A stretch of DNA of 64,000 nt, from assembly GCA_902499925.1 (NCBI GenBank), contig GCA_902499925.1_4130.1, one strand, 5' to 3'. Below, in pieces: positions 1,769 to 56,986 of the stretch (position 1 is its first letter; each line of letters begins with the position of its first letter). The DNA is from Escherichia coli (GTDB lineage: Bacteria; Pseudomonadota; Gammaproteobacteria; Enterobacterales; Enterobacteriaceae). Made by a program: the position numbers and the translations under genes. Under the pieces are notes generated by a model. That model did no database searches. It had not been told where the DNA came from and saw nothing but the letters and a program-made list of their open reading frames with translations.

Positions 1769-2464
1769 TTAGACCCACTCTTCAACGCCACCGCGACGTT
1801 TGACGAGATACTTACCTTCTTCGTTGCGTGGTCCGAGGATGATACCATCAATGAAACCATGTTCACCGTATTCGAGTGCTTCTTCAGCGTTCAACCACAG
1901 GTCACGATCCGCATCTTTCAGTAGTTGTTCGTGTGATACACCAACTGCTTCAGCAATTTCTTTCGTCAATAGTGTGTTCAATGCATCAGAGTGTTTCAAA
2001 GAAATCTTCTGATCGGTAATCAGACCCTGAGTACCGGAACTTACTTGGTGGCACATGAAGTAAGAACGCTTACCACCTAGACGGAAACCTTTAGTACCAA
2101 CAACTGATTGAGTATAGCAACCCATTGATGCTGCATAACCCATTACTACTGTACGGATAGGAGATACACAAGACTTAGCAATGTCAGCGATACCCAAACC
2201 TGCGTGTACTGAACCACCAGGAGAACTAATGTAGAAGGTAATTGGTTCCGAACCCTGAGAATCCAACCACACCAATTGTTGCTTGATGATATGTGCCATT
2301 TGGTCATTGAAGTCAGTATCAAGGAAAATGATACGGTCTTGCATCATACGAGATGCTAGGTCATAAGTACGTTCTGCACCATTAACTTTTTCAACTACAT
2401 AAGGAATAGAAATGTTGCGAACTTCACCACCAGCATAACCACCAAAATTGAATTGTTCAACCAT
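1769..2464 (-). CDS. clpP: ClpP-like ATP-dependent protease proteolytic subunit (S14 peptidase)
   Basis: ISSPGGSV, catalytic Ser in GYAASMG, His in MCHQ, Asp in DADRD; overall colinear with bacterial ClpP. Confidence 0.85.
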   Translation of the reverse strand: MVEQFNFGGYAGGEVRNISIPYVVEKVNGAERTYDLASRMMQDRIIFLDTDFNDQMAHIIKQQLVWLDSQGSEPITFYISSPGGSVHAGLGIADIAKSCVSPIRTVVMGYAASMGCYTQSVVGTKGFRLGGKRSYFMCHQVSSGTQGLITDQKISLKHSDALNTLLTKEIAEAVGVSHEQLLKDADRDLWLNAEEALEYGEHGFIDGIILGPRNEEGKYLVKRRGGVEEWV

Positions 2465-3311: not shown

Positions 3312-4103
3312 TTAGATTTCAAATACAAATTTAGGATCGTAATCGAAGTTCTCACATGCACCACTGTAAGATTCATAACCTCTTGGGTTACAAATGATAC
3401 GAGTTTTTCCAATGTTGTAGTCAAAACTACTATGAACATGACCATGAATCCAAACATCAGCACCCAAATCTTCGATGTACTGGTCCATATCAGAACAATA
3501 ACATCCATTCAGTGAGTCATTCTTGTATCTCGGAGATACACTCTGATAACTTGGTGCATGATGTGTTACCACCACAACCTTGATATCATTATCATTCATT
3601 AGACGAACTGTGTCAACTGAATTTTTGATAAATTGTTTATCCTGATAATGCATGAACTCAACATCATCAGGTTTGAGCTTACGTTTCCACGGTTCTGATG
3701 TTGTTCCATGACGAATGTGTTTATAATCATTCATCTTTTGTTGAGCATCAAACTTAACCAGTGCATTGCCTTTATCAAAGTCAGTCCACAGTGTACTGCC
3801 AACCAGCAGTACACCATCCAGCCATACAAATTTGTTTTGCAAAAAGATGAAATTTGGAATCTCATCTTGCATATCGGATAGTACTTTATTAGTCTTGTGA
3901 ATGTTTGAACCGTAGTACTCATGATTACCAGGAACCAGTACTACATTCTTGAACTGCTTGCACAGGGATTCGATACCAGTACGATAACGACTGCGTTTAG
4001 CTTCATCAAAGTCCCCTGCAATAATCAGCACTGTATCACTGTAATCACCACTATGGAGGTAATCAGTGCCACCGTGTACGTCTGACGTTACAACAAATTT
4101 CAT
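3312..4103 (-). CDS. calcineurin-like metallophosphoesterase
   Basis: Metallophosphoesterase signature blocks DVHG, GDFD, GNHE, HGHVH; AGGAGG RBS upstream of ATG. Confidence 0.75.
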   Translation of the reverse strand: MKFVVTSDVHGGTDYLHSGDYSDTVLIIAGDFDEAKRSRYRTGIESLCKQFKNVVLVPGNHEYYGSNIHKTNKVLSDMQDEIPNFIFLQNKFVWLDGVLLVGSTLWTDFDKGNALVKFDAQQKMNDYKHIRHGTTSEPWKRKLKPDDVEFMHYQDKQFIKNSVDTVRLMNDNDIKVVVVTHHAPSYQSVSPRYKNDSLNGCYCSDMDQYIEDLGADVWIHGHVHSSFDYNIGKTRIICNPRGYESYSGACENFDYDPKFVFEI

Positions 4104-4122: not shown

Positions 4123-5541
4123 TTAACCGAGTGATTCAAGAATACTATTAGAGAACACCTCAACCGCACTATCACGAATTTCTAAGATACGAGTATAGTC
4201 GTCACAAGTGTTTTTGTCAAATCTAAATTCAATAAACACTGGTAAAAATAGTGATGGCTCGCCAGTACGCTTATCGAATACAATATCATTGCACTCTACT
4301 GTTACTACTTGACCGATGAGTTCTTGCATTCTTTCCCAAATGGTTTTAAACGTCCATTCTGCGTCTTTCTCTTTAATTCCAGTACCTACATTAACTTTTA
4401 ATGTACCACAAGCACTTTCCAGTTGTAAAGAACCAAGGCTACCTTTACGCTTACCTTCACCTTCATTGAAACCAACAATACGCAAGTCCAATTGCATCTT
4501 AAGTTTCATTTTCAATTGCTTAGGAGAAGTGTGAGATTTCCAGATACCATCTTCACATTTCAGTACTGAACCCTCTTCACCTTCGTTCATTAGTTCACTA
4601 TTGTACTCAAATGCTTCTTTGATGTTTAGAACTTTACGGAATCCAACCATACGAACAAAATCACTACCGAGTTCGTTAATTGCATCTACTAAGATCTCAC
4701 GGCGTTCTTTACGTTTTACATCCCATACACCTTCACAAAATGCATCATATGGAACAACATCCCATAGAACGAATACAGTACGCATTGCTTCATTCTGACT
4801 GATGCTATCTTTACCAGCTTTCTGGATAATACCGTTACCAGTAGTGCGTGGGAGAATGGTTTCTCCATCATTGTCCAGTACTACACCTTCACCCATAAAG
4901 ACTACACCACTACTAAAACGTTCATCTTTACTTTGGATGATGTGAGCAAGACCTGCCATTTCACCATCACGACAACCCAGGAAGTCGTATAGTTTACCAT
5001 TACGGGATGTAGAAGTTAATGAACCATTAATGACAACGTGGTTCAAGTACTGACCATCCATTTTCACTTCTGATATAGCATAACCATAATCTTTGAAGTT
5101 AATGTTCTTTGCAGTCTTTTTGTCAATCAAAGAACAACGCATGTATGGTTCGTCTTTGATGAAACCTTTCCCGAACACATCATTGCAGTTCTTTTCTTGG
5201 ATACCACAATCAAGGTTCTTCGTGAGCATTTTACGAAGAACTTCTTGGTCATCTTCTGATACAGAACCCAGTACTGAAGCAATGAAGTCACGTCCAGCAT
5301 TTCCGGTCACACCACGTTTGTAAATGCATTCTAGCTTATCAATAGCTTCATCTAATGTCATATGTTGGTATACATCATCAGCTTGTGGTAGCTTTTTATA
5401 CCCACTTACAATTGAAGGGTCTAGTGTATATTTCAGTACTTTTTGTAATGTTTGGTTATCTTTGTTTTGTTCAAGGATAGCTTTTTTACCCAGAGTACTG
5501 CTAGTATTTTTAATGCTTTCAAGAATTGCTAAAATGCTCAT
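4123..5541 (-). CDS. 30: ATP-dependent DNA ligase (T4 gp30-like)
   Basis: N-terminus MSILAILESIK...KKAILEQNKDNQTLQKVLKYTL closely parallels T4 DNA ligase N-terminus; KxDG adenylation motif EVKMDGQ. Confidence 0.9.
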   Translation of the reverse strand: MSILAILESIKNTSSTLGKKAILEQNKDNQTLQKVLKYTLDPSIVSGYKKLPQADDVYQHMTLDEAIDKLECIYKRGVTGNAGRDFIASVLGSVSEDDQEVLRKMLTKNLDCGIQEKNCNDVFGKGFIKDEPYMRCSLIDKKTAKNINFKDYGYAISEVKMDGQYLNHVVINGSLTSTSRNGKLYDFLGCRDGEMAGLAHIIQSKDERFSSGVVFMGEGVVLDNDGETILPRTTGNGIIQKAGKDSISQNEAMRTVFVLWDVVPYDAFCEGVWDVKRKERREILVDAINELGSDFVRMVGFRKVLNIKEAFEYNSELMNEGEEGSVLKCEDGIWKSHTSPKQLKMKLKMQLDLRIVGFNEGEGKRKGSLGSLQLESACGTLKVNVGTGIKEKDAEWTFKTIWERMQELIGQVVTVECNDIVFDKRTGEPSLFLPVFIEFRFDKNTCDDYTRILEIRDSAVEVFSNSILESLG

Positions 5542-5552
5542 TGTATATTCCC

Positions 5553-6755
5553 TTATAGATAATACTTTCCAATGTAAAGTTTATTACTTAGTGATAGCTG
5601 GACGTGACAAGGTTTTTCTTGGTAGTAACGAGTTGATGATGTTTTATTTTCTGTTGGTGGGAAGAAAGGAGAACGGTATCCGTTCCATGTACCAAATGAT
5701 ACATGCTCGTTTAAATCCACATCCATTGTCATAATACCATTAGCATCAATTTCAACTGGATATGCACTGTATCGTTCAAATACATCAGTGTATTGAAGAA
5801 TATAATCACCATTACGACCATAATAACTTCTGGTTGTATTGTTCTTTACACCAAAGAAAACACGATATGCCTGTTCATCAACTTTACACATGAACGGAAC
5901 GTTCTCGTTGAATCGTCCATTACTCATTATATCATCAGGATTGATTTCTTCGTACTTTACTTTCAAATCTTGTGCTTTAAACGACTTATCACTTATCAGT
6001 ACTGGTATATTGCTTTCACATAATGGGTTACTGCGATTTCGTTGGATATTTTGCCAAAATGCATTAGCTTTAACAATTTCATCTTGAACTGTTGTTTTCA
6101 CATTCAGTGCAGCACTTGGTTCTAATGCATAAGTTTCAAGACGAGCATTAAGAGCATATGTCCCACGAGTAGTATTATATACTAAGTGATACTTGGAACT
6201 CTTATCAGAAAATGAAAACTCTTTAGTTTTCTTGATACAAATAGCATTTACTTTACCACAATAATAGTAATCTTCTTTATTGTGTCTAAAACCATCACCT
6301 ACTTTCAATTTAGAAACAACTTCTTTTTGTTGTTCTTTCTTATTCTCCTTCTCAACCAATTTAGCAAAGGTTTTAGTTTTACCGTTAATTAGTTCTAAAC
6401 TATTATTAAAGAACATAGGTTCAACAAATACACCCTTAACAATATCATTGTTGATGATAAGGTCGTTCATGTTTTTAGCACTCACCAAGAACTCGAAACC
6501 TTCAGGGTGACGTATGGTGAAGTATGTTTCACGAGCATGAACAGTGAGCTTATGTACCACAGAAAATCCAATTGTAGGCACATTATCAATCCATAGTGAA
6601 GGTAGATTGTTTTTCTTAGCCCAGTACTCGGCCTTTTCTTTTTTAGTCTCAAACGCTTTTGTGTGTGATTTTGTAGCATCTATAATGTAACCAGTAACTT
6701 GGTTATGATTTACATATGAACGAGCCACAAATAACTTCTCTGGAAAATCCATCAA
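5553..6755 (-). CDS. hypothetical protein
   Basis: 400-aa ORF, no recognisable motif. Confidence 0.6.
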   Translation of the reverse strand: MMDFPEKLFVARSYVNHNQVTGYIIDATKSHTKAFETKKEKAEYWAKKNNLPSLWIDNVPTIGFSVVHKLTVHARETYFTIRHPEGFEFLVSAKNMNDLIINNDIVKGVFVEPMFFNNSLELINGKTKTFAKLVEKENKKEQQKEVVSKLKVGDGFRHNKEDYYYCGKVNAICIKKTKEFSFSDKSSKYHLVYNTTRGTYALNARLETYALEPSAALNVKTTVQDEIVKANAFWQNIQRNRSNPLCESNIPVLISDKSFKAQDLKVKYEEINPDDIMSNGRFNENVPFMCKVDEQAYRVFFGVKNNTTRSYYGRNGDYILQYTDVFERYSAYPVEIDANGIMTMDVDLNEHVSFGTWNGYRSPFFPPTENKTSSTRYYQEKPCHVQLSLSNKLYIGKYYL

Positions 6756-7171
6756 ACAGTCCTCATTGTACTAATTGCTTTTAATGTGTTAAACAATGAA
6801 CCATATTTTACTTGCATTAGTTGATCCCCAGCAGGAAGATTCATACGCATAACAGACATGTCTTCAACCATTTCAGATGTACACAGTACTGCTACACATG
6901 TAGTTGCATCATTTAATCCGGCTTCATTGAATTTAGCGAATGGCACTTTTCCCTGCTTACAAAGGTCATCATAATAAGAATTTAACTTATCATGACCACC
7001 AGCATTTAGTACTACAATAGTTTCGTGGTCATAATACCATTCATCAATAATAGTACTGAAAGCAGTACCTTCATATTCTTTAATTAGTTTTACGCCAGCA
7101 TGAAATGCTTGAATTCCAGCTTGTACACCTTGGCAGTACATGTTTGTTAAGCAATATAATTTCATTTCCAT
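6752..7171 (-). CDS. hypothetical protein
   Basis: 139-aa ORF, 4-nt overlap with upstream gene. Confidence 0.55.
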   Translation of the reverse strand: MEMKLYCLTNMYCQGVQAGIQAFHAGVKLIKEYEGTAFSTIIDEWYYDHETIVVLNAGGHDKLNSYYDDLCKQGKVPFAKFNEAGLNDATTCVAVLCTSEMVEDMSVMRMNLPAGDQLMQVKYGSLFNTLKAISTMRTV

Positions 7172-7389
7172 ACCTCTTGTTTTTCTACAAACCCTTTACC
7201 ATCACAATGTGGACAAGCATAATAACTGCGATAGTCTTCAGATGGTACTTGTTGTGTTCCATTACATGTAGGGCATACTTTACGTGCACCAGAAATAATA
7301 CGTTCATGATGTTCAGCTTGTTTAGCTGAATCAAAAATACGACCATCTTCAGTTTGGTATTTTTCTACCATAACTTGAATTACTTTCAT
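7162..7389 (-). CDS. small zinc-ribbon protein
   Basis: 75 aa with CPTCNG...CPHCDG (two CxxC pairs). Confidence 0.5.
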   Translation of the reverse strand: MKVIQVMVEKYQTEDGRIFDSAKQAEHHERIISGARKVCPTCNGTQQVPSEDYRSYYACPHCDGKGFVEKQEVWK

Positions 7390-7399
7390 TTCTATTTCC

Positions 7400-7705
7400 T
7401 TATAAAAATGTTAAATCTTCAGTACTTAATTGTGATAATTTACCATCATATTCAACTTCAACATATATTGTTTGGTCTGAAATTGTAACTACTCTTCTAA
7501 TAACACCATCAACCACGACATTTTTTTTGTAATAGAATTTAACCTCTGCACCAATAAGTTTTTTTGATAGGAAGTTACGTACCTGTTTGATCTGGTCGGC
7601 AAGTATAGAATTGATGGTTTTTTTCATAATATATAAATCATACAATGATTTTTTAATATCATCATGCATATTATTACCTTTTGAAGCGGTTAAATGAATA
7701 CTCAT
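7400..7705 (-). CDS. small hypothetical protein (loose family D, KxIGxxV core)
   Basis: 101 aa; LSKKLIGAEVKFYY segment resembles other small ORFs in 7-15 kb. Confidence 0.45.
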   Translation of the reverse strand: MSIHLTASKGNNMHDDIKKSLYDLYIMKKTINSILADQIKQVRNFLSKKLIGAEVKFYYKKNVVVDGVIRRVVTISDQTIYVEVEYDGKLSQLSTEDLTFL

Positions 7706-8432
7706 CTTTTTCTTTACGTAAGTATCTCATCCCGTCACTTTGGGGAGTTGCAAGAGTTAAATCACCAGTTAAAAACTGACTATCAATCCAGATACGATTA
7801 CCGTAGATGAGTGGGTCTGATACTGCGGTATGACCACTAAAGACGCAATGGATACCATCAAGTCTAGGGACGTAATATGTGTTATTTTTCTTGCAGTAGT
7901 CGAATGTATCACGGTCCCACAAGCACTTATCAATTATATCAGCACTAAGTGATTTTGTCCCACTAACGAAACGTTCCCATGTGGTATATTCCAAAGGAAC
8001 ACCAGCATGAACCAGTCCAATCTTCAATCCTCGGTGATTGATTTGGATAATCATAGGGAGATCCTTTAAGTACTGACGAAAGAACTGTATACCAGTCTCA
8101 CCAACTTCATCAAGGAACTTGTCGCCACCATTGGACATCCAGCAGTGATACCAGTCACGGTGAGTTTCAGAATCAACACACATGATCTCATGGTTCCCAG
8201 CAATCATAAAACGGTTTTCACCGAAAAGGAATTCAAATAGTAGTTTGGAATTCTGGTCACCACGGTCAATAACATCACCTACACAAAAAACATAGTCATT
8301 ATTGGTGATACCAAATTCTTTCTTGGTAGCATCCCACAGTTTTCCGTTGCCGTGTAAATCACCAACGATATATAAATCTTTATCATCCGGTACTGTAACT
8401 TCCAAAAAATGTTTCATTATTGTTCCAACCAT
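7674..8432 (-). CDS. Ser/Thr protein phosphatase-like metallophosphoesterase (PP-lambda/ApaH-like)
   Basis: GDLHGN, GDVIDRG, GNHE motifs; alternative start at MKHFLEV (8417). Confidence 0.75.
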   Translation of the reverse strand: MVGTIMKHFLEVTVPDDKDLYIVGDLHGNGKLWDATKKEFGITNNDYVFCVGDVIDRGDQNSKLLFEFLFGENRFMIAGNHEIMCVDSETHRDWYHCWMSNGGDKFLDEVGETGIQFFRQYLKDLPMIIQINHRGLKIGLVHAGVPLEYTTWERFVSGTKSLSADIIDKCLWDRDTFDYCKKNNTYYVPRLDGIHCVFSGHTAVSDPLIYGNRIWIDSQFLTGDLTLATPQSDGMRYLRKEKDEYSFNRFKR

Positions 8433-8671
8433 ATAATGTTAGTGTGTTTTGTAACTTGTGTTCCTGCAAAAGAACCATCTTTAAGATACGTATTAACTTT
8501 GAAACGCCATTCACCACCGCTAATATACATATCAGCGATAATGTACTTCCCATAACCCCTTGAGTTTATCAAACGTACTTCTTGTCCAATATACTTCGGC
8601 TTCAAATCATTAATAAAATCATCAGCCAAAGACATAAGATATCGCAAATGTGAATAGTCGGTGTTGAACAT
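8417..8671 (-). CDS. small hypothetical protein (loose family D)
   Basis: Track ORF 8417..8746 trimmed to internal Met (MFNTDY) giving TAATG junction with upstream ORF; KYIGQEVRLIN segment. Confidence 0.4.
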   Translation of the reverse strand: MFNTDYSHLRYLMSLADDFINDLKPKYIGQEVRLINSRGYGKYIIADMYISGGEWRFKVNTYLKDGSFAGTQVTKHTNIIWLEQ

Positions 8672-8886
8672 TATTTCTTTCTCTTGAAGTGGGATATAAT
8701 ATCTTTTATTATTGAGATAAAAAGATACACCATAGTTACAGGCCAAATTATAGCCATCAGTGCTGCTGATTGTAGACTCATTGCAGTTATGATTTCATCT
8801 TTGAAACATTTCCAATTCAGTACTAGAAAGTTACATATAAATGAGCAAAACGCTACGAACCCATATATTGCAAAAAATGTAGTCAT
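8671..8886 (-). CDS. small membrane protein
   Basis: 71 aa, two hydrophobic helices, C-terminal KRKK. Confidence 0.4.
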   Translation of the reverse strand: MTTFFAIYGFVAFCSFICNFLVLNWKCFKDEIITAMSLQSAALMAIIWPVTMVYLFISIIKDIISHFKRKK

Positions 8887-8888
8887 TA

Positions 8889-9221
8889 TTATTCCTCATC
8901 AACTTGAATAAGATATTCTAAACTTATTTCATCACCAAAGGCAGCGGCATCAATTGCATCGTGATTGATGTATTCTACTTGTGCAATTAAACGTATACCG
9001 TATTTCATAATTTCAATAATTCTCATTCTTGTATTGGAATTTATGTACTGGTAGTATGATTCATACTCTGGATCATCGTCAATTTCCGCATATCGGTTGA
9101 TGTACTCGTCAGTAAATTTTACTATCTTACCGACGAGTTCTGTTTCTGCACTTTTATAGAAATCATCTTTCATTTGATGCAACGCAATCAAGTACTGATT
9201 ATATTGTGCAAGATGTTTCAT
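8889..9221 (-). CDS. hypothetical protein
   Basis: 110-aa acidic ORF. Confidence 0.5.
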   Translation of the reverse strand: MKHLAQYNQYLIALHQMKDDFYKSAETELVGKIVKFTDEYINRYAEIDDDPEYESYYQYINSNTRMRIIEIMKYGIRLIAQVEYINHDAIDAAAFGDEISLEYLIQVDEE

Positions 9222-9223
9222 TG

Positions 9224-9820
9224 TTAATCACAGCTACCGGAACTGGAACTTGAGCTTGAATCACAGCTAGAGCTATCATATGAACCAGTATCAGCAGAAG
9301 AGATATATGGCGTTACGATTGCTGCGGTGGTGGCTGCTGTAATAATATGGGAAGTATGGTCGTGTGTACCTTGTTGTGGTTCATCTTGGACTTTGTTTTT
9401 ATTCTTCCCTTTAGTATAGCGAGCTTTCTTTGTAGTTTTGGTGTTCTTTGGTGCTTTAGTACTTTTCGGTGCTGCTTTAGGCTTTACTTCATTAACTACA
9501 GGAACAACAGTAACATTAACTTTAGGGTCAGATTCATCAAGTGCATTGTGAACATTCACTTGCATTTGAACTTCAACTTTAAGTTCTTCTTGTTCTTCAG
9601 GAATAACTTTTTCAGGTTCTGGTGTAACCTGATCACGTTTATCATTAATCATGAAGTTGATATTACGTTCACCTAGTACTAATAAAGTAACAATGGTGAG
9701 TACTGGGGTCAGTACTAGACTAAGTAGTACATAACCGATAACACTACGGTTGTAATTGTATGCAAGCATACCTGCAATGACTACACCTAGTACACTAATA
9801 ACTGCTGCGATTGTTAACAT
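9224..9820 (-). CDS. membrane-anchored protein with Lys-rich and Ser/Cys/Asp-rich tail
   Basis: N-terminal TM helices, KxK-rich middle, C-terminal SSSSSSSSGSCD low-complexity. Confidence 0.5.
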   Translation of the reverse strand: MLTIAAVISVLGVVIAGMLAYNYNRSVIGYVLLSLVLTPVLTIVTLLVLGERNINFMINDKRDQVTPEPEKVIPEEQEELKVEVQMQVNVHNALDESDPKVNVTVVPVVNEVKPKAAPKSTKAPKNTKTTKKARYTKGKNKNKVQDEPQQGTHDHTSHIITAATTAAIVTPYISSADTGSYDSSSCDSSSSSSSGSCD

Positions 9821-10133
9821 ATTCTACTCCTTTGTATATAAATTTACCAATATCTTCGATGTATAAACAGATTCCACCTCGTTCATTTAACACAACCCAA
9901 TCACCAAAACCGCAACGAATGTTTTGTATATTAAATTCTTCAATACCATCCGGTGAATACGCAATGAATGGACATAAATCATCTGATATCCCATTTACAT
10001 AGTTATTACATATTAAATCAAATGTATGTGAACTATAAGAATTATCAGTACTGAAAATGTGCATTAATGAACTAGATAGAATTACTATTGTTTTTTCCCA
10101 CATTTTTAAAAAATCGTTATTCACAACAACCAC
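9795..10133 (-). CDS. hypothetical protein
   Basis: 112-aa ORF. Confidence 0.45.
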   Translation of the reverse strand: MVVVNNDFLKMWEKTIVILSSSLMHIFSTDNSYSSHTFDLICNNYVNGISDDLCPFIAYSPDGIEEFNIQNIRCGFGDWVVLNERGGICLYIEDIGKFIYKGVEYVNNRSSY

Positions 10134-10181
10134 TCCATGTCAGTGTCGTAATGAAATTATATCACCGAATCAAGATATGTC

Positions 10182-10487
10182 TCATGAGATTCGCATTTCA
10201 TCCAGATATAAACTACATGCTTCGAAATTGTTGTCAGCACTTAAACCTAAATCAACCATCAGACCACAATGCGTTCCCCAGAATTTCTTTATGTATAGTT
10301 TTTTGCTACTATTACCTAAATCATAAACATATTCATTTTTAAATATACTTTTTAATTCTTCACATATACATTTTATTATCTTCATTAATTGATTATGATA
10401 TTCGTATGGTATTCCATCAAGTTCGTTAATTATTAATGCAAAACCATCATCATAGTACTTAAGTTTATTGAATGTTTGTATATCCAT
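10182..10487 (-). CDS. hypothetical protein
   Basis: 101-aa ORF. Confidence 0.45.
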   Translation of the reverse strand: MDIQTFNKLKYYDDGFALIINELDGIPYEYHNQLMKIIKCICEELKSIFKNEYVYDLGNSSKKLYIKKFWGTHCGLMVDLGLSADNNFEACSLYLDEMRIS

Positions 10488-10784
10488 TTAATATATAATC
10501 TCACTAGCTTCTATTGTGTAGACACCATCATCAGTCATTAATCTTACTGCAACTTTAATATTACTAGACATTCGTGTAACTATCAATCCAATAATTATAC
10601 CATTCTTTAAAGTACCATTATGGTATCTAACTTTTACTTCAGTTTTATTATCAATTAAGTATCTTCTAATTATGTGTATTTCATTTCTGAATAATTCTAA
10701 AAAAGCTTCACTATTTTCTTTATCTGACCCGTCTGAACACCAGTACAATAAATTTACTTGTTCAAATAATTTTTTTATATTCAT
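10488..10784 (-). CDS. small hypothetical protein (loose family D)
   Basis: 98 aa; EVKVRYHNGTLKNGIIIG segment. Confidence 0.45.
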   Translation of the reverse strand: MNIKKLFEQVNLLYWCSDGSDKENSEAFLELFRNEIHIIRRYLIDNKTEVKVRYHNGTLKNGIIIGLIVTRMSSNIKVAVRLMTDDGVYTIEASEIIY

Positions 10785-11083
10785 AAAAATCTCACAGATT
10801 TAATATTACTGGTTACATGATTTACCCAAGTGTTATCGAACTTGTAAACAATTGTATTAAGTGATTTATGAAAATTAACCTCGCACACTAATGCCTTGGA
10901 ACCATTGATTGTACAGACCGTGGATGGTAAGTTGTTTGCTAATATCTCTTTTTCATCTAAACAAAGTGAACTAATACAATCATAATAGAGAGGTTCAAGA
11001 ACTTTTTCAGTACTGAGAAAGTCAAAAGAAAGATCATCTATTAGTTTTATGTAATTGAATAAATTTTGATAGTACTCATTCAT
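10781..11083 (-). CDS. hypothetical protein
   Basis: Track ORF 10781..11140 trimmed to internal Met (MNEYYQ) to avoid overlap with upstream ORF. Confidence 0.4.
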   Translation of the reverse strand: MNEYYQNLFNYIKLIDDLSFDFLSTEKVLEPLYYDCISSLCLDEKEILANNLPSTVCTINGSKALVCEVNFHKSLNTIVYKFDNTWVNHVTSNIKSVRFL

Positions 11084-11327
11084 TGTCAATCCTCTTGAAT
11101 TTAGCATTATTCGAATAAGTATATGAATGTCCAAAATCATTTACACCATGCACATTCAATACACCGTCGATGAAATAGATTCGGTCAATGGTGAGTTCAC
11201 GTTTATAATCCGAATCATCATACCAGCACAGAACACGAATACCTTTGTACTTTGTCGTTAGCTCTTTTTCTAATGTAATTAAGTACTCGATATAACTTTT
11301 GAATAGCTCTAAGTCCTGCTCAAACAT
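11076..11327 (-). CDS. small hypothetical protein (loose family D)
   Basis: 83 aa; TTKYKGIRVLCWYD segment. Confidence 0.45.
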   Translation of the reverse strand: MFEQDLELFKSYIEYLITLEKELTTKYKGIRVLCWYDDSDYKRELTIDRIYFIDGVLNVHGVNDFGHSYTYSNNAKFKRIDNE

Positions 11328-11587
11328 CAGTGTTCCTCGTATAATTCTATGTCATCAACTCCAACTTGGCGAATTGCAGTACTTCTTTTAAATGTACCTT
11401 TTTCATATAAACATACAGTTAAACGTATTTCACACTTCAATGCACTGTAATAAATCATATCAATAACACCATATGTTTCATACATTTCTACGTATACATT
11501 TCGTCCTAAGTACTTTTCTTCTAAATCAGTAATTAGACTATTGATAAGATTACCTATCTGTGTTATATCTGTGTGAAATTTATCCAT
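11327..11587 (-). CDS. small hypothetical protein (loose family D)
   Basis: 86 aa; LEEKYLGRNVYVEMYE segment. Confidence 0.45.
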   Translation of the reverse strand: MDKFHTDITQIGNLINSLITDLEEKYLGRNVYVEMYETYGVIDMIYYSALKCEIRLTVCLYEKGTFKRSTAIRQVGVDDIELYEEH

Positions 11588-11812
11588 TACAATAATCCTC
11601 TCACATAAAACATTGATGAAAATAGATAATCTTCAGTACTAGAATTTAGTAGTTTATCAAAACTATAATTTTTATGCTTATTTTCATACAAAGACATTCT
11701 GTAGTATCTTTCTATATTTTCTAAGTAGTCTTTTCGTAATAACATCTGTGTTGTTACATTCACTATAATGTACCTTAAAAGAAAAAGGGACCAATATATG
11801 ATCCCTTTTGTA

Positions 11813-12745
11813 TTAGAAATTTCCTTCTGCCACTTGGAAAACTTTCATCCCAAGTAGCTTACGCCACATGAATACAACTTGATTGCGGTCATCATAAACC
11901 TTTTTAACATCGTAATGATCAACCACATTTTTCATGTACAGGTCGAATTTGACAACATCATCAGGACGTTTATCATCAATGTCTCGCATAAACAATGCAT
12001 CGTAAGGAATACCCCAATTCTTAAGCCACTGTTCGGTATCAGCACGACACCCTTCAGTACGCCCACTCATGACGATAATCTTGCGTTTATGAAAAACTGC
12101 TTCTGCGATAATAGACAAAATAACTTCTTCGTCTGGTGTATCCTGGAGTACAGTACTTTCATCGAACGGATTACGCCCCCATTTATGAGCAAGAGTTCCA
12201 TCGATATCAACGATGATAGCAGCTTCGCGTGAATTACCATAGTAACCAATGTGTAATGCCTTACTATAATAGTACGTATCTGCCATTGTGTCAATGATAT
12301 CATCTTGTACTGAACGCTCACGCTGGAGATTATATTTCTTACAAAGTTTTACGAACTCTTTAATCTTAAAGAATTCATGAACATCTGCACCACGGTCTTC
12401 ATTAGGTACAAAATCATCATAGAAGTTCTTTTCTTTGTAATCATAACCATTATCTTTAGCCCACATTTTCCATTGATCACGGAAATGTGGTTTAAGGTTC
12501 GTATCGGATACGATGATGTTCCAACCATTCTCTGCTGCTGAATTTGCTGCACTGAACTGTAAATTAGTTACGTACTTCTCATTAGCATCATTGAATTTGT
12601 AAGCATCATGTGAACCAGCCATAGATTCACGAATATCATCACGGTTGATGTTGATAGTCTTGGATTTGGCTTTTTTAATCTCTTGCACTGCCCATGTAGT
12701 TTTACCACACCCAGGCAATCCAACTGTTAGTGTGATAGTTGGCAT
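11813..12745 (-). CDS. pseT: polynucleotide 5'-kinase / 3'-phosphatase (T4 PseT-like)
   Basis: Walker A GLPGCGKT, NINRDD, phosphatase DxDGT motif IVDIDGTLA, C-terminal DDR..VV.MW block; colinear with T4 Pnk. Confidence 0.9.
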   Translation of the reverse strand: MPTITLTVGLPGCGKTTWAVQEIKKAKSKTININRDDIRESMAGSHDAYKFNDANEKYVTNLQFSAANSAAENGWNIIVSDTNLKPHFRDQWKMWAKDNGYDYKEKNFYDDFVPNEDRGADVHEFFKIKEFVKLCKKYNLQRERSVQDDIIDTMADTYYYSKALHIGYYGNSREAAIIVDIDGTLAHKWGRNPFDESTVLQDTPDEEVILSIIAEAVFHKRKIIVMSGRTEGCRADTEQWLKNWGIPYDALFMRDIDDKRPDDVVKFDLYMKNVVDHYDVKKVYDDRNQVVFMWRKLLGMKVFQVAEGNF

Positions 12746-12748
12746 ACT

Positions 12749-13078
12749 TTAATCCTCTAAAAATTTAACATGCTCTATATTATGATAGGTGAGCCATTCC
12801 TGTGGCGTTCCCTTGCGTATTAAAACACCAATATACGCAATACCATTAATTAGACCATTACTATCAGTATTCACATCAACTTTCACAATCTCAGAATCAT
12901 ACCAGTGTTTGAATGTGTAATCCCAACATCTGACTTTCTTTCCAATAAGATTGTTCTTGTATTTGTCAATCATTTCATCAACGATTGTTTGTACTGAATT
13001 TTTAATTTCAGCTTCTACTGACTTTATATACAGTAAATTACTTTGTGCATTGTTTATCATTGTATTTCCCAATCCCAA
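12749..13078 (-). CDS. small hypothetical protein (loose family D)
   Basis: 109 aa; KNNLIGKKVRCWDY segment. Confidence 0.45.
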   Translation of the reverse strand: MGLGNTMINNAQSNLLYIKSVEAEIKNSVQTIVDEMIDKYKNNLIGKKVRCWDYTFKHWYDSEIVKVDVNTDSNGLINGIAYIGVLIRKGTPQEWLTYHNIEHVKFLED

Positions 13079-13274
13079 ATCGCTTGGAGATTTTCACAAG
13101 TACAGATTCATCACAACGAATACTAGCAGTATCATTGGATGAACTGTACTTTAATGGGGTCCACTGTAATTGAGATTCTTCTAGGAACTTGATACATCTG
13201 AAATAATCTTTCAAGGAAAGAAATTTAACTACTGACATATCCTGAACAATACTATGCTGAACTTCAACTTTCAT
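13038..13274 (-). CDS. hypothetical protein
   Basis: 78-aa ORF overlapping neighbour 3' end; weakly supported. Confidence 0.3.
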   Translation of the reverse strand: MKVEVQHSIVQDMSVVKFLSLKDYFRCIKFLEESQLQWTPLKYSSSNDTASIRCDESVLVKISKRFGIGKYNDKQCTK

Positions 13275-13283
13275 ATGAACTCC

Positions 13284-13541
13284 TTATAGTGGGTCGAATT
13301 TATTTTCACGTTTCGATGTATAGCGAGTTACATCATGTATTCTCGGCTTAACACCTTTTGGTTTCCTTTTCTTCTTGTATTCAGTACTACTACACCCGAA
13401 AGTATTCTCGATTCGTTTCTTACTAATCTTCACACCTTTCTTAGAGCGTTTGTGCTGTAATTCATCGATTTCTTCTTGTATTTTCCTGAATTCTGTCGGA
13501 GAAAGGGAACCGTCATTTTTATACTTAGGTTTAGCCATCAC
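13284..13541 (-). CDS. small basic protein
   Basis: 85 aa, Lys/Arg-rich. Confidence 0.4.
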   Translation of the reverse strand: MMAKPKYKNDGSLSPTEFRKIQEEIDELQHKRSKKGVKISKKRIENTFGCSSTEYKKKRKPKGVKPRIHDVTRYTSKRENKFDPL

Positions 13542-13567
13542 TTCTCCTTGTGCTAGGCTAGATAGTA

Positions 13568-14710
13568 CTAAAAATCCTTTAGTACAATTTTCATGTACTT
13601 AATAAGAGTCTCTTTGTAATCGACTTTCTTATTGTTGTACATTGCAAAGGCCAAGCCCTGACGATTCAGTTCATTAGTTAAACACTCCTGAACCTTCTTA
13701 GCGAATTCCTTTCGCTCCAAGTGCTTGTGTTCCTTGACGAAGCTTTCAACTTCATCTTGTAAAGCATTATAGCACGAAAAGACTAGTTGTTCCATTCTTA
13801 ATATCTTTTGAGTAGCATATTCGTCAGTACTGAACAACTGTTTTAAATCATCACTCGAACCATTTAATACAGCTTCATATAAATGGGAATCGATTATAAT
13901 ACTGTCTTTCGTTAAATGCAAAGAACAATACCAGTCGGTTTTGATTTTGCACATTGTACCATTATTTAGGATGCACACAAAACCTTCAATGTCAAGCATT
14001 TTCTTAACTTCTTCAACACTTTCTTTGAATGTAGCACGAACAGGGAAAGTGTAATGAATATCTTTACCTGTCATATTAGTACTGTACTGTGCAAGGCATG
14101 GAAACTTATTACGTAATGCAGAACCACATAATAGTTCACCACTCTTGCGATGGCGAACGTTTAGTACAAATAATTGTTCAACCTGGTATGGTAATACAAT
14201 ACGGTACTCTGGACTTGTATACTCCAGATTAACAGTATAGCCCAAACGGTCTGCTTCGTCAATGTATTGATACAAATTTTGGTTCTCATTGAGAAGACGA
14301 GTACTGTTAATCGCATGGTCTGAATACAATGCAGTATGTGATTTACAACGAATTACACCATCATTATCACGGTAAGTACTGATTACTGAACCATCCAACT
14401 TAGGCATCACTACTGCAATGTCATCGAATGTGGTATCAGCAGGGAACATTGTAGCAGGATTTTCATAAGCATTGAAGAACTTTTTCATAGTACGAGCAGC
14501 ACAACGAATCATATCACCGTCTTCATCAATTTCCCACATAGAACCACGGGTTTCTAATGCATTGGGTTGCATGAAATCGGTATATGATGCTAGACGATAA
14601 CTGAATACACGATATGTTCCACCAGCAGGACTTTTATGATCCACATAAAAGAAAGCCTCACGGGTATTACATAAGTGCATTAAATCTTCATATATTTGTA
14701 AAAGGGTCAT
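13568..14710 (-). CDS. rnlA: RNA ligase 1 (T4 Rnl1/gp63-like)
   Basis: Colinear with T4 Rnl1: TYRVFSY, RGSMWE, adenylation motif KLDGSVISTY, later blocks EGFV and KIKTDWY. Confidence 0.9.
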   Translation of the reverse strand: MTLLQIYEDLMHLCNTREAFFYVDHKSPAGGTYRVFSYRLASYTDFMQPNALETRGSMWEIDEDGDMIRCAARTMKKFFNAYENPATMFPADTTFDDIAVVMPKLDGSVISTYRDNDGVIRCKSHTALYSDHAINSTRLLNENQNLYQYIDEADRLGYTVNLEYTSPEYRIVLPYQVEQLFVLNVRHRKSGELLCGSALRNKFPCLAQYSTNMTGKDIHYTFPVRATFKESVEEVKKMLDIEGFVCILNNGTMCKIKTDWYCSLHLTKDSIIIDSHLYEAVLNGSSDDLKQLFSTDEYATQKILRMEQLVFSCYNALQDEVESFVKEHKHLERKEFAKKVQECLTNELNRQGLAFAMYNNKKVDYKETLIKYMKIVLKDF

Positions 14711-14970
14711 TTTATTACCTCTATATCTACATCTGTGCCATAGTAGGAAACGTAACCATTATCTGAATTACATTGAATTGATAACTCTGATTCATAGTAT
14801 GTTACTTTGAACACTGTTAGAACTTTTTCATCAATTTTTCCCGTTAAATAATCCATTTCACGAACACGAACTTTGGTTCCTTTTGGGAGTTCTTGTGCAA
14901 TTTTATTAACAAGTTCAAAAGCAGCTTCTTCAAGTGTGTGCAACAATTGCAATCTATCTTGGATATTCAT
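14707..14970 (-). CDS. small hypothetical protein (loose family D)
   Basis: Track ORF 14707..15015 trimmed to internal Met (MNIQDR); PKGTKVRVREMD segment. Confidence 0.4.
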   Translation of the reverse strand: MNIQDRLQLLHTLEEAAFELVNKIAQELPKGTKVRVREMDYLTGKIDEKVLTVFKVTYYESELSIQCNSDNGYVSYYGTDVDIEVIK

Positions 14971-16881: not shown

Positions 16882-17619
16882 TTAGAAATATACCATACCC
16901 ATCAATTCTGAATCTTCAGGGCGAGTATAGCCTTGTTTCTTAACTTTAAAGTAGAAGGATTCATTGTCTTCTAAATTATAACGTTTCTTCAAGCAACGGG
17001 TATATGTCTGGCAATTAGGATGAACCCATTCATATATATGAACACCATCTTCATTATAACCATTTATACTACAACGGTTGCCTTCATGTTTCTTGTAGTT
17101 CTTGCTTTTCTCGGTAAATTCTTTTACAGCAGTAGTACTTGGTGATTTATATTCAAAAGGAACTTCAGTCATACGGAAATAATAATATTGATCGTCTTCA
17201 TCATATCCCAAGAGCACTGTGTTAGTTTCACGTACATTGTAATGATTCTTACTTTTCAATTCATTTTCATATATATCTTGAAGTACTTCTTCAAATACTG
17301 TAGTACTGTCAGCATTTGGGTTGGATACACCTGATACTCTTCGTTCAATAATAAAATCAGTATATTTGCGGTCTTCTGCAATGTCTTCATTCATATAAAG
17401 ACTAACGAACTTATCCTTGTACGTCTTTACACTGTATTGTTTACTTTGAACTTCGCTATATACATCTGCTAACATATTCTCCTGACCGCACTGCACACCA
17501 CTTACAGAATAAGCACATGCATGTTCAGCCATCACTGATGTTAACATTTGAAAATTTGCCATGTTTAATTCATTCGCCATCTCTGTAGCGAAACGGATAC
17601 GGTCAAGCACTTTCCACAC
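16882..17619 (-). CDS. hypothetical protein
   Basis: 245-aa ORF. Confidence 0.5.
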   Translation of the reverse strand: MWKVLDRIRFATEMANELNMANFQMLTSVMAEHACAYSVSGVQCGQENMLADVYSEVQSKQYSVKTYKDKFVSLYMNEDIAEDRKYTDFIIERRVSGVSNPNADSTTVFEEVLQDIYENELKSKNHYNVRETNTVLLGYDEDDQYYYFRMTEVPFEYKSPSTTAVKEFTEKSKNYKKHEGNRCSINGYNEDGVHIYEWVHPNCQTYTRCLKKRYNLEDNESFYFKVKKQGYTRPEDSELMGMVYF

Positions 17620-17668
17620 TCCTTGTGTTAGTTATTGTTCCTTATCCATTATTATATCACTACTTGAG

Positions 17669-55880: not shown

Positions 55881-56121
55881 ATTTCTCTTTATTAGCTTGT
55901 TTGGTTTTATAGTGAATTAAATCTATTAATGTAATCAAGTACAACTTCAAAAAGTACTCTTGATGGTTCGTACCTAATGATACAAAGAACTTATGCTCAT
56001 AAATCAAAACCTGTTTCACTTCAAAGGGACACTTAATCCTCTGTATAGGTTTAAGTAAATGATAGTACTTATTAAATCTATGATACATTTCTAGTTCTGT
56101 CAGTACTTTCATATTAAACAA
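55870..56121 (-). CDS. paralog family B member
   Basis: LGTNHQEYFLKLYL. Confidence 0.55.
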   Translation of the reverse strand: MFNMKVLTELEMYHRFNKYYHLLKPIQRIKCPFEVKQVLIYEHKFFVSLGTNHQEYFLKLYLITLIDLIHYKTKQANKEKYEN

Positions 56122-56335
56122 TCACTCCATTAGCTGTAGCATCACGTAAAGCTCTCAAATACTTCTGTACTGCTTGCTCTTGCTTATTTGTACCTAAAAG
56201 TATATACATCCATAATTCACTGTAATGTACATCTTGTGTATAAGGGTTGTTGTAACTTTTTGATAATATAGCATCAAATTCAGATGCATGAACCCTTGTG
56301 AACTTAAGAATATCTTGTTGTGTTATGATTCTCAT
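56114..56335 (-). CDS. paralog family B member
   Basis: LGTNKQEQAVQKYL. Confidence 0.55.
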   Translation of the reverse strand: MRIITQQDILKFTRVHASEFDAILSKSYNNPYTQDVHYSELWMYILLGTNKQEQAVQKYLRALRDATANGVIV

Positions 56336-56547
56336 ATCTTTTCCTGTACTATCTGTATAAGAATCCCTATGTGTGAATTAACAGTTCTCTCTTGATGCTG
56401 TGTTCCTAAGAGTGTCAGTACTATCATCTCTGAACGCAAAAGATTTTTCTGAAGTTCACTTATATCAGTCCTCATATCAAGATTCAGAAATTCTTGACTA
56501 TTTTTTCTGAATAGTGCCAAGTACTCTTGATTTGATATTTCCTTCAT
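56332..56547 (-). CDS. paralog family B member
   Basis: LGTQHQERTVNSHI. Confidence 0.55.
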   Translation of the reverse strand: MKEISNQEYLALFRKNSQEFLNLDMRTDISELQKNLLRSEMIVLTLLGTQHQERTVNSHIGILIQIVQEKI

Positions 56548-56774
56548 AGTTTATCCCTGATGCCATTTAAAAGTGCTCTAATATGCTCCTGTACGAATTT
56601 GTACTGACTGTCTGTTCCTAGAGTGAGTAGCAATCTTAAATCTGAACTTTTGATGTGATATTCTAAATCATTATTTGATTCTTGCATCAGTTTCTTAAAG
56701 GATGAGAAGTTTGCAGCCATTAGTTCAATGTATTCTGCTGTTCCTAGTGGTTTGTGTATTGGCTGTTTGTGCAT
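56544..56774 (-). CDS. paralog family B member
   Basis: LGTDSQYKFVQEHI. Confidence 0.55.
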   Translation of the reverse strand: MHKQPIHKPLGTAEYIELMAANFSSFKKLMQESNNDLEYHIKSSDLRLLLTLGTDSQYKFVQEHIRALLNGIRDKL

Positions 56775-56986
56775 TTTAATTTTATTACCCTTTTGAGTGT
56801 ATTAATGTAATTATACACATTGGCTTCTTGATAGTTAGTTCCCAGTGTAGCTTGAACATAGATTTCATTTAACTTAATAATTTTATCAGTATCTGGTAGT
56901 TTTGATGTGTTAATGGCAAATAACTTCAAAAACAGTCCATTTAAGATTGTTAGGTATTCTTCGTCGGTAATGATTCGCATTTGCAT
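56744..56986 (-). CDS. paralog family B member
   Basis: LGTNYQEANVYNYI. Confidence 0.6.
   Translation of the reverse strand: MQMRIITDEEYLTILNGLFLKLFAINTSKLPDTDKIIKLNEIYVQATLGTNYQEANVYNYINTLKRVIKLKCTNSQYTNH

Follow-up and report, generated by a model that had tools for sequence, protein, structure and literature searches.

T4-type RNA ligase 1, polynucleotide kinase, and DNA ligase genes in T4 order within a conserved region of RaK2-like jumbo phages

In the T4 reference (NC_000866, region 125.7-137.5 kb), the minus strand carries rnlA, alc, pseT.3/.2/.1, pseT, cd.5-cd.1, cd, 31.2, 31.1, 31, rIII, 30.9-30.1, and 30. Phage tRNA repair enzymes counteract PrrC (PMC2610378, PMC1484252). For the jumbo phage CBB, rnlA and gp30 have been listed as T4 homologues and tRNA repair has been suggested for them (PMC5259590), and rnlA, pseT, gp30, and cd are already named in the RaK2 record. 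PMC7824862 derives group 2 jumbo phages from T4-like predecessors by expansion and counts Rnl1, PNK-HAD, and calcineurin-like phosphoesterases as jumbo-phage RNA repair. In the Clostridium thermocellum Pnkp/Hen1 system, RNA ends are healed and sealed by a P-loop kinase combined with a lambda-phosphatase-type metallophosphoesterase and an adenylyltransferase ligase, whereas at the locus described here the predicted activities are divided among separate proteins, Pnk has a HAD-type 3'-phosphatase, and the Hen1 methyltransferase is absent.

The whole stretch of DNA analysed, 64,000 nucleotides, is referred to as the window. It matched nine Asteriusvirus genomes with 96-97% nucleotide identity over 12 kb, which identifies the source as an Asteriusvirus jumbo phage (PBECO4/121Q group), RaK2-like; it is not a T4-type genome. 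Genomes of this kind are ~350-385 kb, compared with 169 kb in T4. Going by shared hallmarks, we would assign the RaK2-like phages to the T4-related "group 2.2" of Iyer. The principal genes are as follows.

13568..14710, minus strand: Rnl1, T4 RnlA/gp63-type RNA ligase 1, 380 aa (Pfam, NCBIfam, T4 RnlA alignment)
11813..12745, minus strand: Pnk, T4 PseT-type polynucleotide 5'-kinase/3'-phosphatase, 310 aa (Pfam, PHROG, T4 PseT alignment)
7674..8417, minus strand: lambda/NinI-type PPP-family phosphatase, 247 aa (Metallophos 2.5e-11; phrog_246 2e-66)
6752..7171, minus strand: conserved 139-aa "hydrolase" (phrog_3668), possibly PTH2-fold (Pfam PTH2, borderline)
5553..6752, minus strand: conserved 399-aa protein with no known function, immediately upstream of the ligase
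4123..5541, minus strand: ATP-dependent DNA ligase, T4 gp30-type, 472 aa (Pfam, PHROG, T4 gp30 alignment)
3312..4103, minus strand: metallophosphoesterase with no assigned specificity, 263 aa (Metallophos 4.8e-14; phrog_1649 6e-72)

Rnl1, Pnk, and the DNA ligase are homologous to their T4 counterparts, with 31-35% full-length identity and all catalytic motifs kept. Rnl1 carries the Pfam domains RNA_lig_T4_1 (2.1e-14) and T4_Rnl1_C, the tRNA-specific C-domain (2.6e-16), scored 290 bits against the NCBIfam equivalog TIGR02308, above the cut-off of 242, and aligned with T4 RnlA over its full length at 35% identity (E 6e-63). Motif I (KLDG) was invariant in alignment A2, as were the residues that we take, from T4 mutational work, to be essential. 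Its distribution in the phage collection is essentially Straboviridae and the RaK2-like jumbo clade. Pnk carries AAA_33 (9e-14) and HAD_PNKP (5e-43), matched phrog_505 at 4e-96, and aligned full length with T4 PseT (34% identity, E 2e-49), including the P-loop GxxGCGKT, NRDDxR, DIDGT, and both DD motifs. The ligase contains DNA_ligase_A_M (1.2e-13) and OB_2, matched phrog_114 at 1e-118, and aligned full length with T4 gp30 at 31% identity over 485 columns (E 1e-46), its KMDG aligned to the KADG of gp30.

An earlier note on this DNA had placed the ligase, Pnk, and Rnl1 in the order and orientation of T4 genes 30, pseT, and 63; this was confirmed against NC_000866, and every gene it named was found in place on the minus strand. 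Both genomes read rnlA, pseT, 30 on one strand with small function-unassigned ORFs between these anchors, and the rnlA-to-30 span is 11.7 kb in T4 and 10.6 kb here. The divergent Tevenvirinae phage Acj133 also keeps the order.

The T4 genes between or beside the anchors were searched for by phmmer and tblastn, by scanning each ORF against PHROG and Pfam, and by structure search. None of the 25 (gp31, rIII, Alc, Cd, and 21 others) had a homologue anywhere in the window, and the best phmmer/tblastn E among 25 x 381 T4-gene comparisons was 0.027. The locus is without the alc, pseT.1-3, cd.1-5, 31, 31.1, 31.2, rIII, and 30.1-30.9 of T4. The claim that the intervening T4 genes are not recognisable thus stands for the window, but cd has been relocated and not lost: a homologue (39% identical to T4 Cd) is encoded ~4.3 kb downstream of the ligase, immediately outside the window's left end, whereas in T4 cd is located between pseT and 30. 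No denA, nrdAB, td, or frd was found in the upstream flank and no alt in the downstream flank; the T4-like order ends at three genes and both flanks differ completely. Further T4 homologues along the genome (nrdD/G, tk, lysozyme) lie outside T4 order. The locus also carries the lambda-type phosphatase, the second metallophosphoesterase, the PTH2-like "hydrolase", the 399-aa protein, and ClpP, for which no homologues were found among the T4 proteins tested from the corresponding region (alt.1 to denA).

The earlier description, a T4-like phage with its intervening genes replaced, was the wrong frame, since the whole layout is stable and common to four jumbo genera: Asteriusvirus, Alcyoneusvirus (RaK2), Mimasvirus (CBB), and Eneladusvirus (Yen9-03). 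The backbone order is rnlA, small ORFs, pseT, small ORFs, lambda-type phosphatase, "hydrolase", ~400-aa protein, ligase, ClpP, and cd, and it is identical in the published phages vB_Ec-M-J, PBECO4, 121Q, and phAPEC6 (Asteriusvirus), RaK2 and K64-1 (Alcyoneusvirus), CBB and GAP32 (Mimasvirus), and Yen9-03 (Eneladusvirus). These relatives are annotated with RNA ligase, polynucleotide kinase, Ser/Thr phosphatase, hydrolase, DNA ligase, metallophosphoesterase, ClpP, and dCMP deaminase. The small ORFs between anchors vary from genus to genus, both in how many there are and in which ones; RaK2 has an endonuclease in place of the metallophosphoesterase found in other RaK2-like phages (counterparts of 3312-4103 are present in CBB and Yen9-03), and phage J has one more gene upstream, for a free-standing endonuclease, that is missing from the window. 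Because the genes and their T4 relationship are annotated in published relatives, the module was known beforehand, and the observation is correct but ordinary.

The probability that three genes would lie this close together, within 10.6 kb in a unique genome of 357 kb, is P = 2.6e-3, and the clustering is therefore not random; multiplied by the chance of the order (1/6) it becomes P = 4.4e-4, uncorrected for post-hoc gene choice. Gene order alone (P = 1/6) is weak evidence. We consider it likely that this is a conserved jumbo-phage repair region, a T4-type RNA repair pair plus ligase, whose micro-synteny comes from T4-like ancestry. The shared order (rnlA, pseT, 30, with cd nearby) would be a short micro-synteny most likely handed down from the clade's T4-like ancestors, and the spaces between anchors would have been filled independently in each lineage by small, fast-evolving, lineage-restricted genes, Tudor-barrel family D included.

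All three enzymes diverge in parallel: identities are 57-64% among phages of the jumbo clade and 29-36% in comparisons with T4-type phages. An unlikely alternative is that the ancestor of the RaK2-like jumbo phages gained the rnlA-pseT-(cd)-30 segment by a single horizontal transfer from a T4-like phage, after which the T4 intervening genes were lost and replaced. The roughly equal distance of the four proteins from T4 (31-39% identity), the restriction of synteny to the rnlA-30 block between unrelated flanks, and the hosts that RaK2-like and T4-type phages have in common would all suit such a transfer. However, in the comparison with the divergent Straboviridae T4, Acj133, and AS-szw, the jumbo proteins were about equidistant from all three and not nested near one donor, and other T4 homologues are scattered in the clade (uvsW, dda, gp46/47, endo VII, and uvsX in CBB; PMC5259590), so that general relatedness fits better than a single import.

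That end-healing and end-sealing enzymes were grouped by co-expression, the T4 order being a 1-in-6 coincidence, is improbable in our judgement. Because Pnk and Rnl1 work together, their linkage could be kept by function and not by history; cd is positioned differently from T4, phosphoesterases with possible end-processing roles are interleaved, and PMC7824862 notes that RNA ligases, kinases, and phosphoesterases are often operon-linked. Yet both lineages have as their third anchor the DNA ligase, which is not known to have any functional link with tRNA repair, and the proteins are of the T4 type in particular, more than mere analogues. Simple co-transcription is also made less likely by a terminator-like hairpin lying between pnk and the ligase unit.

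11783..11809, minus strand: hairpin resembling an intrinsic terminator, with a T-run after it, starting 3 nt past the pnk stop codon (consensus scan)

This putative terminator has an 11-bp stem (-14.4 kcal/mol, z = -3.66; equal folding in 0/200 shuffles) and is identical in phage vB_Ec-M-J; Yen9-03 has an annotated promoter at the matching junction. The interval would belong to a conserved left-arm region transcribed in one direction and form its nucleic-acid-repair part; rnlA and pnk probably share a transcription unit ending at the hairpin, and the ligase, lambda-type phosphatase, small "hydrolase", and ~400-aa protein would make up a downstream unit. Sigma-70-type promoter matches were not enriched (68 found, 60 +/- 9 in shuffles), and these units are therefore not established.

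The remaining features are small ORFs.

14707..14970, minus strand: marginally supported family D member, next to rnlA on its upstream side (leave-one-group-out E 0.15)
13284-13538 (basic) and 13038-13274, minus strand: small lineage-specific ORFs between rnlA and pnk (phrog_15306, phrog_14730, no known function)
12749..13060, minus strand: best supported family D member, the one modelled
11587..11763, minus strand: 58-aa ORF downstream of the hairpin (phrog_38284 1e-39; no CDS here in the phage J annotation)
11327-11587 and 11076-11327, minus strand: two adjacent family D members (leave-one-group-out E 0.07 and 2e-3)
8671..11083, minus strand: lineage-specific small ORF stretch, each ORF its own unannotated PHROG
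10781-11083, 10488-10784, and 8889-9221, minus strand: D-like ORFs, by architecture only
10182-10487 and 9795-10103, minus strand: ORFs without assigned function
9224-9820 and 8671-8886, minus strand: membrane minigenes
8417..8671, minus strand: family D member (leave-one-group-out E 8e-4)
7400..7669, minus strand: family D member (leave-one-group-out E 8e-3)
7162..7389, minus strand: zinc-finger minigene, 75 aa, two CxxC pairs (phrog_12574 1e-40)

Family D is a weakly supported lineage-restricted small-protein family, for which the model of 12749-13060 suggests an N-terminal helix and a Tudor-like barrel. A shared KYxGxxV motif was noted at the 11076-11587 pair, phmmer linked the ORFs at 11327 and 8417 at 1e-3, and the family profile detected RaK2 ORF463, the positional counterpart of 14707-14970, at 2e-6. 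Membership was unsupported for 8889 and 10488 in the leave-one-group-out test and for 10781 in the leave-one-out test, and no small ORF of 8671-11083 had a Pfam family. The zinc-ribbon and membrane minigenes reported earlier are present, the former with DnaJ/anti-TRAP-type CxxC pairs and sub-threshold matches to Anti-TRAP and DnaJ_CXXCXGXG (Pfam) and RtpA/DnaJ (NCBIfam).

Homology soundly points to a tRNA-repair role, as already proposed in the literature. Pnk would turn the ends that anticodon nucleases leave (2',3'-cyclic phosphate and 5'-OH) into 3'-OH and 5'-phosphate, Rnl1, with its tRNA-specific C-terminal domain retained, would then reseal the anticodon loop, and the T4-type ATP-dependent DNA ligase would seal nicks. 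No tRNA genes were found in the window. The Pnk-Rnl1 pair is kept in phages of Escherichia, Klebsiella, Salmonella, Pectobacterium, Erwinia, Yersinia, Serratia, and Xanthomonas, which points to RNA-cleaving defences in general as a long-standing selective pressure. To conclude from its retention that the host encodes such a defence was an overreach, as this spread is uninformative on the particular host of this phage.

The 6752-7171 "hydrolase" exceeded the Pfam PTH2 cut-off narrowly (23.2 bits, cut-off 23.0), two of its four genus orthologues matched PTH2, and a profile search found no PTH2 structure for it; its position is kept in all four jumbo genera. For the 3312-4103 metallophosphoesterase, sequence search found no solved relative. 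A part for the phosphoesterases in cyclic-nucleotide signalling had been suggested, for which the sole support is a far sub-threshold CpdA similarity (19 bits, cut-off 225). Lambda phosphatase and CthPnkp are 2',3'-cyclic phosphodiesterases (PMC2190708), a biochemical precedent by which the lambda-type phosphatase may act on RNA ends. An alternative start at 8432 is possible for its ORF. The PP-lambda-like call itself was borne out by a match to lambda phosphatase (PDB 1G5B, 3.9e-16), with NCBIfam PrpA/PrpB-like at 6e-17 and the motifs GDLHG, GDVIDRG, and GNHE visible in the translation. It also matches phrog_8238 "RNA ligase" (7e-07), perhaps a Pnkp-like multidomain family.

A 12-kb query around the three anchor genes (RNA ligase Rnl1, polynucleotide kinase Pnk, and ATP-dependent DNA ligase) matched 43 phage records. 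Full-length matches at 96-97.3% identity were to nine jumbo phages of Escherichia with genomes of 354-386 kb, the best being vB_Ec-M-J (OQ718158, genus Asteriusvirus; phage J below), and PBECO4, 121Q, and phAPEC6 were matched at about 88% identity. The window is collinear with phage J up to 63.2 kb, which places it in Asteriusvirus. Given the high identity to these phages, the anchor region sits in a RaK2-like jumbo myovirus, and the T4-like phage that the earlier note had assumed as the setting is replaced by a genome that is not of the T4 type (Straboviridae).

All real genes in the anchor part of the window are carried on the minus strand. The anchors are as follows.

13568-14710, minus strand, Rnl1 (rnlA), predicted RNA ligase of the T4 RnlA family
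11813-12745, minus strand, Pnk (pseT), predicted polynucleotide kinase-phosphatase of the T4 PseT type
4123-5541, minus strand, predicted ATP-dependent DNA ligase of the T4 gp30 type (gene 30)

Rnl1 matched the nucleotidyltransferase domain PF09511 (2.1e-14) and, at residues 268-379, the C-terminal tRNA-specificity domain PF20819 T4_Rnl1_C (2.6e-16), scored 290.1 bits against the NCBIfam equivalog TIGR02308 (cut-off 242.25), and was 35% identical to T4 RnlA (6e-63), with motif I KLDG aligned to T4 KEDG; it is predicted to seal RNA, including tRNA. Invariant in an Rnl1 alignment of jumbo-clade and T4-type proteins (window numbering) were R55, K77, F79, K104, G107, K123, E163, E242-G243, K255, and K257. 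The residues essential in T4 Rnl1 were taken to be those of the Shuman laboratory mutational work. Pnk has a P-loop kinase domain (AAA_33, residues 5-102) fused to HAD_PNKP (175-310, 5e-43), so that a kinase and a DxDxT (HAD) 3'-phosphatase are both predicted, and aligns with T4 PseT over its whole length at 34% identity, with GCGKT, NRDDxR, DIDGT, DDVVK, and DDR aligned. The ligase matched PF01068 (1.2e-13) and, at 22.7 bits and under its cut-off of 28, OB_2; it aligned with T4 gp30 at 31% identity over 485 columns (residues 3 to 453, N-terminal domain included) with the KxDG lysine aligned, and K160, D162, and G163 were invariant in the ligase alignment. All three anchor genes are real and intact, and their naming from the bare sequence was borne out by domains, motifs, and 31-35% identity to the T4 counterparts.

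The T4 order was read in NC_000866, where the minus strand carries rnlA, alc, pseT.3/.2/.1, pseT, cd.5-cd.1, cd, 31.2, 31.1, 31, rIII, 30.9-30.1, and 30. Checked against this record, ligase, Pnk, and Rnl1 do stand in the T4 order and orientation relative to transcription, as had been claimed, and the span from rnlA to 30 is 11.7 kb in T4 vs 10.6 kb from rnlA through pnk to the ligase in the window. Three genes placed at random in a 357-kb genome fall within 10.6 kb with P = 2.6e-3, and an order factor of 1/6 lowers this to P = 4.4e-4, not corrected for the genes having been chosen post hoc; the clustering of the three anchors is real, and their order alone is weak evidence.

The flanks were compared from their annotation tables. 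Upstream of rnlA, denA, nrdAB, td, and frd are absent from the phage J annotation, which lists about 125 hypothetical small genes back to a 21.5-kb direct terminal repeat. Downstream of the ligase follow metallophosphoesterase, ClpP, cd, Sir2, NUDIX, PhoH, NrdD/G, spanins, Tk, and lysozyme. The T4 flanks (denA-nrdB-nrdA-td-frd upstream and alt downstream) were not found in these tables, and the nrdD-nrdG-tk-lysozyme order differs from what we take to be the T4 positions of these genes. Since the flanks are unlike those of T4, the T4-like order is limited to three genes, or to four with one transposition.

For the genes that T4 has between the anchors, 25 T4 proteins (rIII, 31, 31.1, 31.2, cd, cd.1-5, pseT.1-3, alc, denA, 30.1-30.9, and alt.1) were searched using phmmer against all 381 window ORFs of at least 40 aa and using tblastn against the window. 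The best E value was 0.027, which is chance level for this number of comparisons; alc, gp31, rIII, and cd had no significant match in the window, and the gene content of the T4 block was not recovered between the anchors. Each interval ORF has its own unannotated PHROG, all of them different from those of the scanned T4 proteins (30.1-30.9 and 31.1), and no Pfam family was matched by the small ORFs of the interval. The earlier note had named the recovery of divergent gp31, Cd, or Alc homologues among these small ORFs as evidence against its claim; with the T4-gene, PHROG, and Pfam searches all empty, none was recovered inside the interval. The claim that rIII, 31, cd, and alc are unrecognisable between the anchors therefore stands, but cd is not lost and sits on the other side of the ligase. 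The nearly identical phage J encodes a dCMP deaminase, with 39% identity to T4 Cd (3e-36), about 4.3 kb downstream of the ligase, a position just off the left end of the window, and cd is also found beyond the ligase in RaK2, CBB, and Yen9-03.

The backbone of the window is common to RaK2 (Alcyoneusvirus), CBB (Mimasvirus), and Yen9-03 (Eneladusvirus).

Gene order of the jumbo-clade backbone
First part: Dam, cytidyltransferase, ..., rnlA, 3-5 small ORFs, pseT, 8-12 small ORFs
Middle: NinI/lambda-type phosphatase, 'hydrolase', ~400-aa protein, DNA ligase
End: hypothetical protein, metallophosphoesterase (endonuclease in RaK2), ClpP, ..., cd

In the phage collection, every RaK2-like genus has Rnl1, which outside this clade is almost confined to Straboviridae. 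All three enzymes have 57-64% identity within the clade vs 29-36% to T4-type proteins, a parallel divergence that is as expected if the enzymes travelled together. Among T4-type phages, the T4 layout is complete in Acinetobacter phage 133, so there are two stable layouts with shared anchors. Throughout the RaK2-like clade, rnlA, pseT, and gene 30, with cd nearby, stand as they do in T4, and the genes between them are all different. Such a kept order with differing gap content fits jumbo phages that grew from T4-like ancestors by filling gaps between anchors, and inheritance from T4-like ancestry, with the gaps filled independently, is the most likely source of the shared order. Transfer of the genes as a block and functional clustering are lesser alternatives. 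Expansion of T4-like predecessors is how 'group 2' jumbo phages are described by Iyer et al. (PMC7824862), where the hallmarks of group 2.2 include split Pol III alpha, dda, endo VII, and ClpP. Truncated Pol III alpha, dda, and endonuclease VII are reported for CBB in its description (PMC5259590); because these match the hallmarks and ClpP is in the module, the RaK2-like clade probably belongs to group 2.2.

The module itself is a known feature of a known phage group, with its genes annotated in >40 GenBank genomes. The RaK2 RefSeq record names rnlA, pseT, gp30, and cd; in the CBB paper, rnlA (CBB_83) and gp30 (CBB_100) are listed as T4 homologues and tRNA repair is suggested (PMC5259590), and RNA repair in jumbo phages by Rnl1, PNK-HAD kinases, and calcineurin-like phosphoesterases is reviewed by Iyer et al. 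(PMC7824862). As far as the available text of the two papers goes, the word 'synteny' is absent from the CBB paper and gene order is discussed in neither (PMC5259590, PMC7824862), so the explicit statement of a conserved gene order appears to be a small addition and the only increment over what was known.

Between the anchors, the PP-lambda-like phosphatase, the zinc-finger minigene (7162-7389), and the membrane minigenes (8671-8886 and 9224-9820) are present as the earlier note described. Both 7674-8417 and 3312-4103 encode metallophosphoesterases. The former matched lambda phosphatase itself (1G5B, 3.9e-16, residues 7-228), so the label is right, and contains GDLHG, GDVIDRG, and GNHE, as in lambda/PPP-family metallophosphatases. 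Since 2',3'-cyclic phosphodiesterase activity is known for lambda phosphatase and CthPnkp (PMC2190708), a contribution of this kind could, by analogy, be made by 7674-8417. The 139-aa 'hydrolase' (6752-7171) scored 23.2 bits against PTH2, borderline to the cut-off of 23.0, and two of its four orthologues match PTH2; no PTH2 structure was found for it among solved structures by sequence or profile search. Structure comparison of the 399-aa protein (5553-6752) gave no whole-fold match. The 399-aa and 139-aa proteins were also considered as diverged T4 gp30.2/gp30.3, which have the same positions and similar sizes, and were rejected on absent BLASTP similarity and different PHROGs.

Nearby, 1769-2464 (minus strand) is annotated as 'head maturation protease' in phage J, RaK2, and CBB and lies among early-region genes. 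It matched NCBIfam ClpP at 8e-46 and TIGR00493 at 6e-45 vs 1.4e-13 for the ClpP-related head maturation protease; the annotation is probably wrong, since the score for a true ClpP is much the better one. Iyer et al. regard the ClpP of group 2.2 phages as a protease that is likely directed at the host (PMC7824862).

The small ORFs named family D (an N-terminal helix followed by a Tudor-like barrel) had no BLASTP links among themselves and were compared in a motif-anchored alignment (N-terminal helix, KYxGxxV, then beta segments) with leave-one-group-out searches.

Family D ORFs by start coordinate, with leave-one-group-out E value
12749, 5e-5, supported
8417, 8e-4, supported
11076, 2e-3, supported
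7400, 8e-3, supported
11327, 0.07, marginal
14707, 0.15, marginal
8889, 1.6, membership not supported
10488, 3.4, membership not supported

The family as first proposed thus appears to be partly real, with support for four ORFs, marginal support for two, and none for 8889 and 10488. A profile search of 5.8 billion proteins gave only 25 relatives, and the profile also picked up RaK2 small ORFs in corresponding places, among them ORF463 just upstream of rnlA (2e-6). A relationship to T4 cd.2, prompted by a 55% match over 20 aa to 14707, was rejected at a phmmer score of only 7.8 bits, as was kinship with other T4 small proteins (family HMM E of at least 0.019 against all 25 T4 proteins); no T4 protein was among the top 50 Foldseek matches of family D in BFVD.

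Repair of tRNA by T4 against PrrC-type nucleases is an established system (PMC1484252, PMC2610378). By homology to T4, Pnk would heal 2',3'-cyclic-phosphate and 5'-OH ends, Rnl1 would rejoin anticodon loops after their cleavage by PrrC-type nucleases, and the ligase would seal DNA nicks. A stable hairpin with a T-run begins 3 nt past the pnk stop codon (-14.4 kcal/mol, z = -3.7) and is identical in phage J, and a promoter is annotated at this junction in Yen9-03; rnlA-pnk is therefore probably a unit separate from the ligase group. A promoter scan gave 68 sites vs 60 +/- 9 expected, hence no enrichment. Right after the hairpin, a 58-aa GTG-start ORF (11587-11763, minus strand; phrog_38284, 1e-39) is unannotated in phage J. 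The host of this phage may encode an anticodon nuclease, as the earlier note deduced from the kept Pnk/Rnl1 pair. The conservation of the pair in phages from eight or more host genera indicates a broad selective pressure of long standing rather than a trait of any single host.

No tRNA genes (ARAGORN) and no Rfam families at the gathering threshold were found on either strand of the whole 64-kb window. Outside the window, 30-40 kb further along on the same strand, the phage J record has a 412-aa 'nucleotidyltransferase' (108211-109449) and a tRNA nucleotidyltransferase of the CCA-adding type (121995-123110), and a second RNA ligase is reported in the CBB paper (PMC5259590), so the Pnk/Rnl1 pair is apparently only part of the RNA-repair equipment of the clade. 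Gene linkage across four genera is the basis for a further, rather improbable reading, namely that of an extended RNA-damage and translation-rescue island instead of a bare Pnk/Rnl1 pair. In such an island, the lambda-type phosphatase could open 2',3'-cyclic phosphates, the PTH2-like protein could free peptidyl-tRNA from ribosomes stalled on cut tRNAs, and host nucleases or RNA polymerase could be countered by binders or decoys, namely the Tudor-containing 399-aa protein and the Tudor-barrel proteins of family D, which is diversifying. Studies of jumbo-phage early functions could reasonably target the 399-aa protein, the PTH2-like 'hydrolase', and the minigenes with a Tudor barrel.

Very large tandem paralogue families, all 'hypothetical' in phage J, fill most of the window (27300-61650, minus strand). 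One family comprises 28-29 helical proteins of ~70-85 aa, nearly all of them encoded contiguously at 53.7-61.6 kb. Two others, with 19 and 11 members by BLASTP, cross-detect by HMM (34 and 30 matches), and a helix-plus-beta architecture resembling that of family D is seen in a smaller family at 18.1-20.3 kb. Membership of family D in the large families (28, 19, 11, and 4 members) was rejected at hhalign probabilities of <=0.2%. Over the 28-member family, AT skew is about -0.2 at 56000-60000 vs about -0.05 elsewhere, with GC skew near zero, which probably reflects the codon usage or amino-acid composition of this repeated family. The boundary of the phage J terminal repeat corresponds to about window position 61696, directly after the last member of this family, and G+C is 0.42 in the last 2 kb of the window vs about 0.33 elsewhere. 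At window 17607-17629, where the flanking alignments overlap by 23 bp, phage J has an insertion of ~930 bp that is absent from the window and encodes a 307-aa free-standing 'endonuclease' (EcMJ_170), which looks like a homing-endonuclease presence/absence polymorphism.
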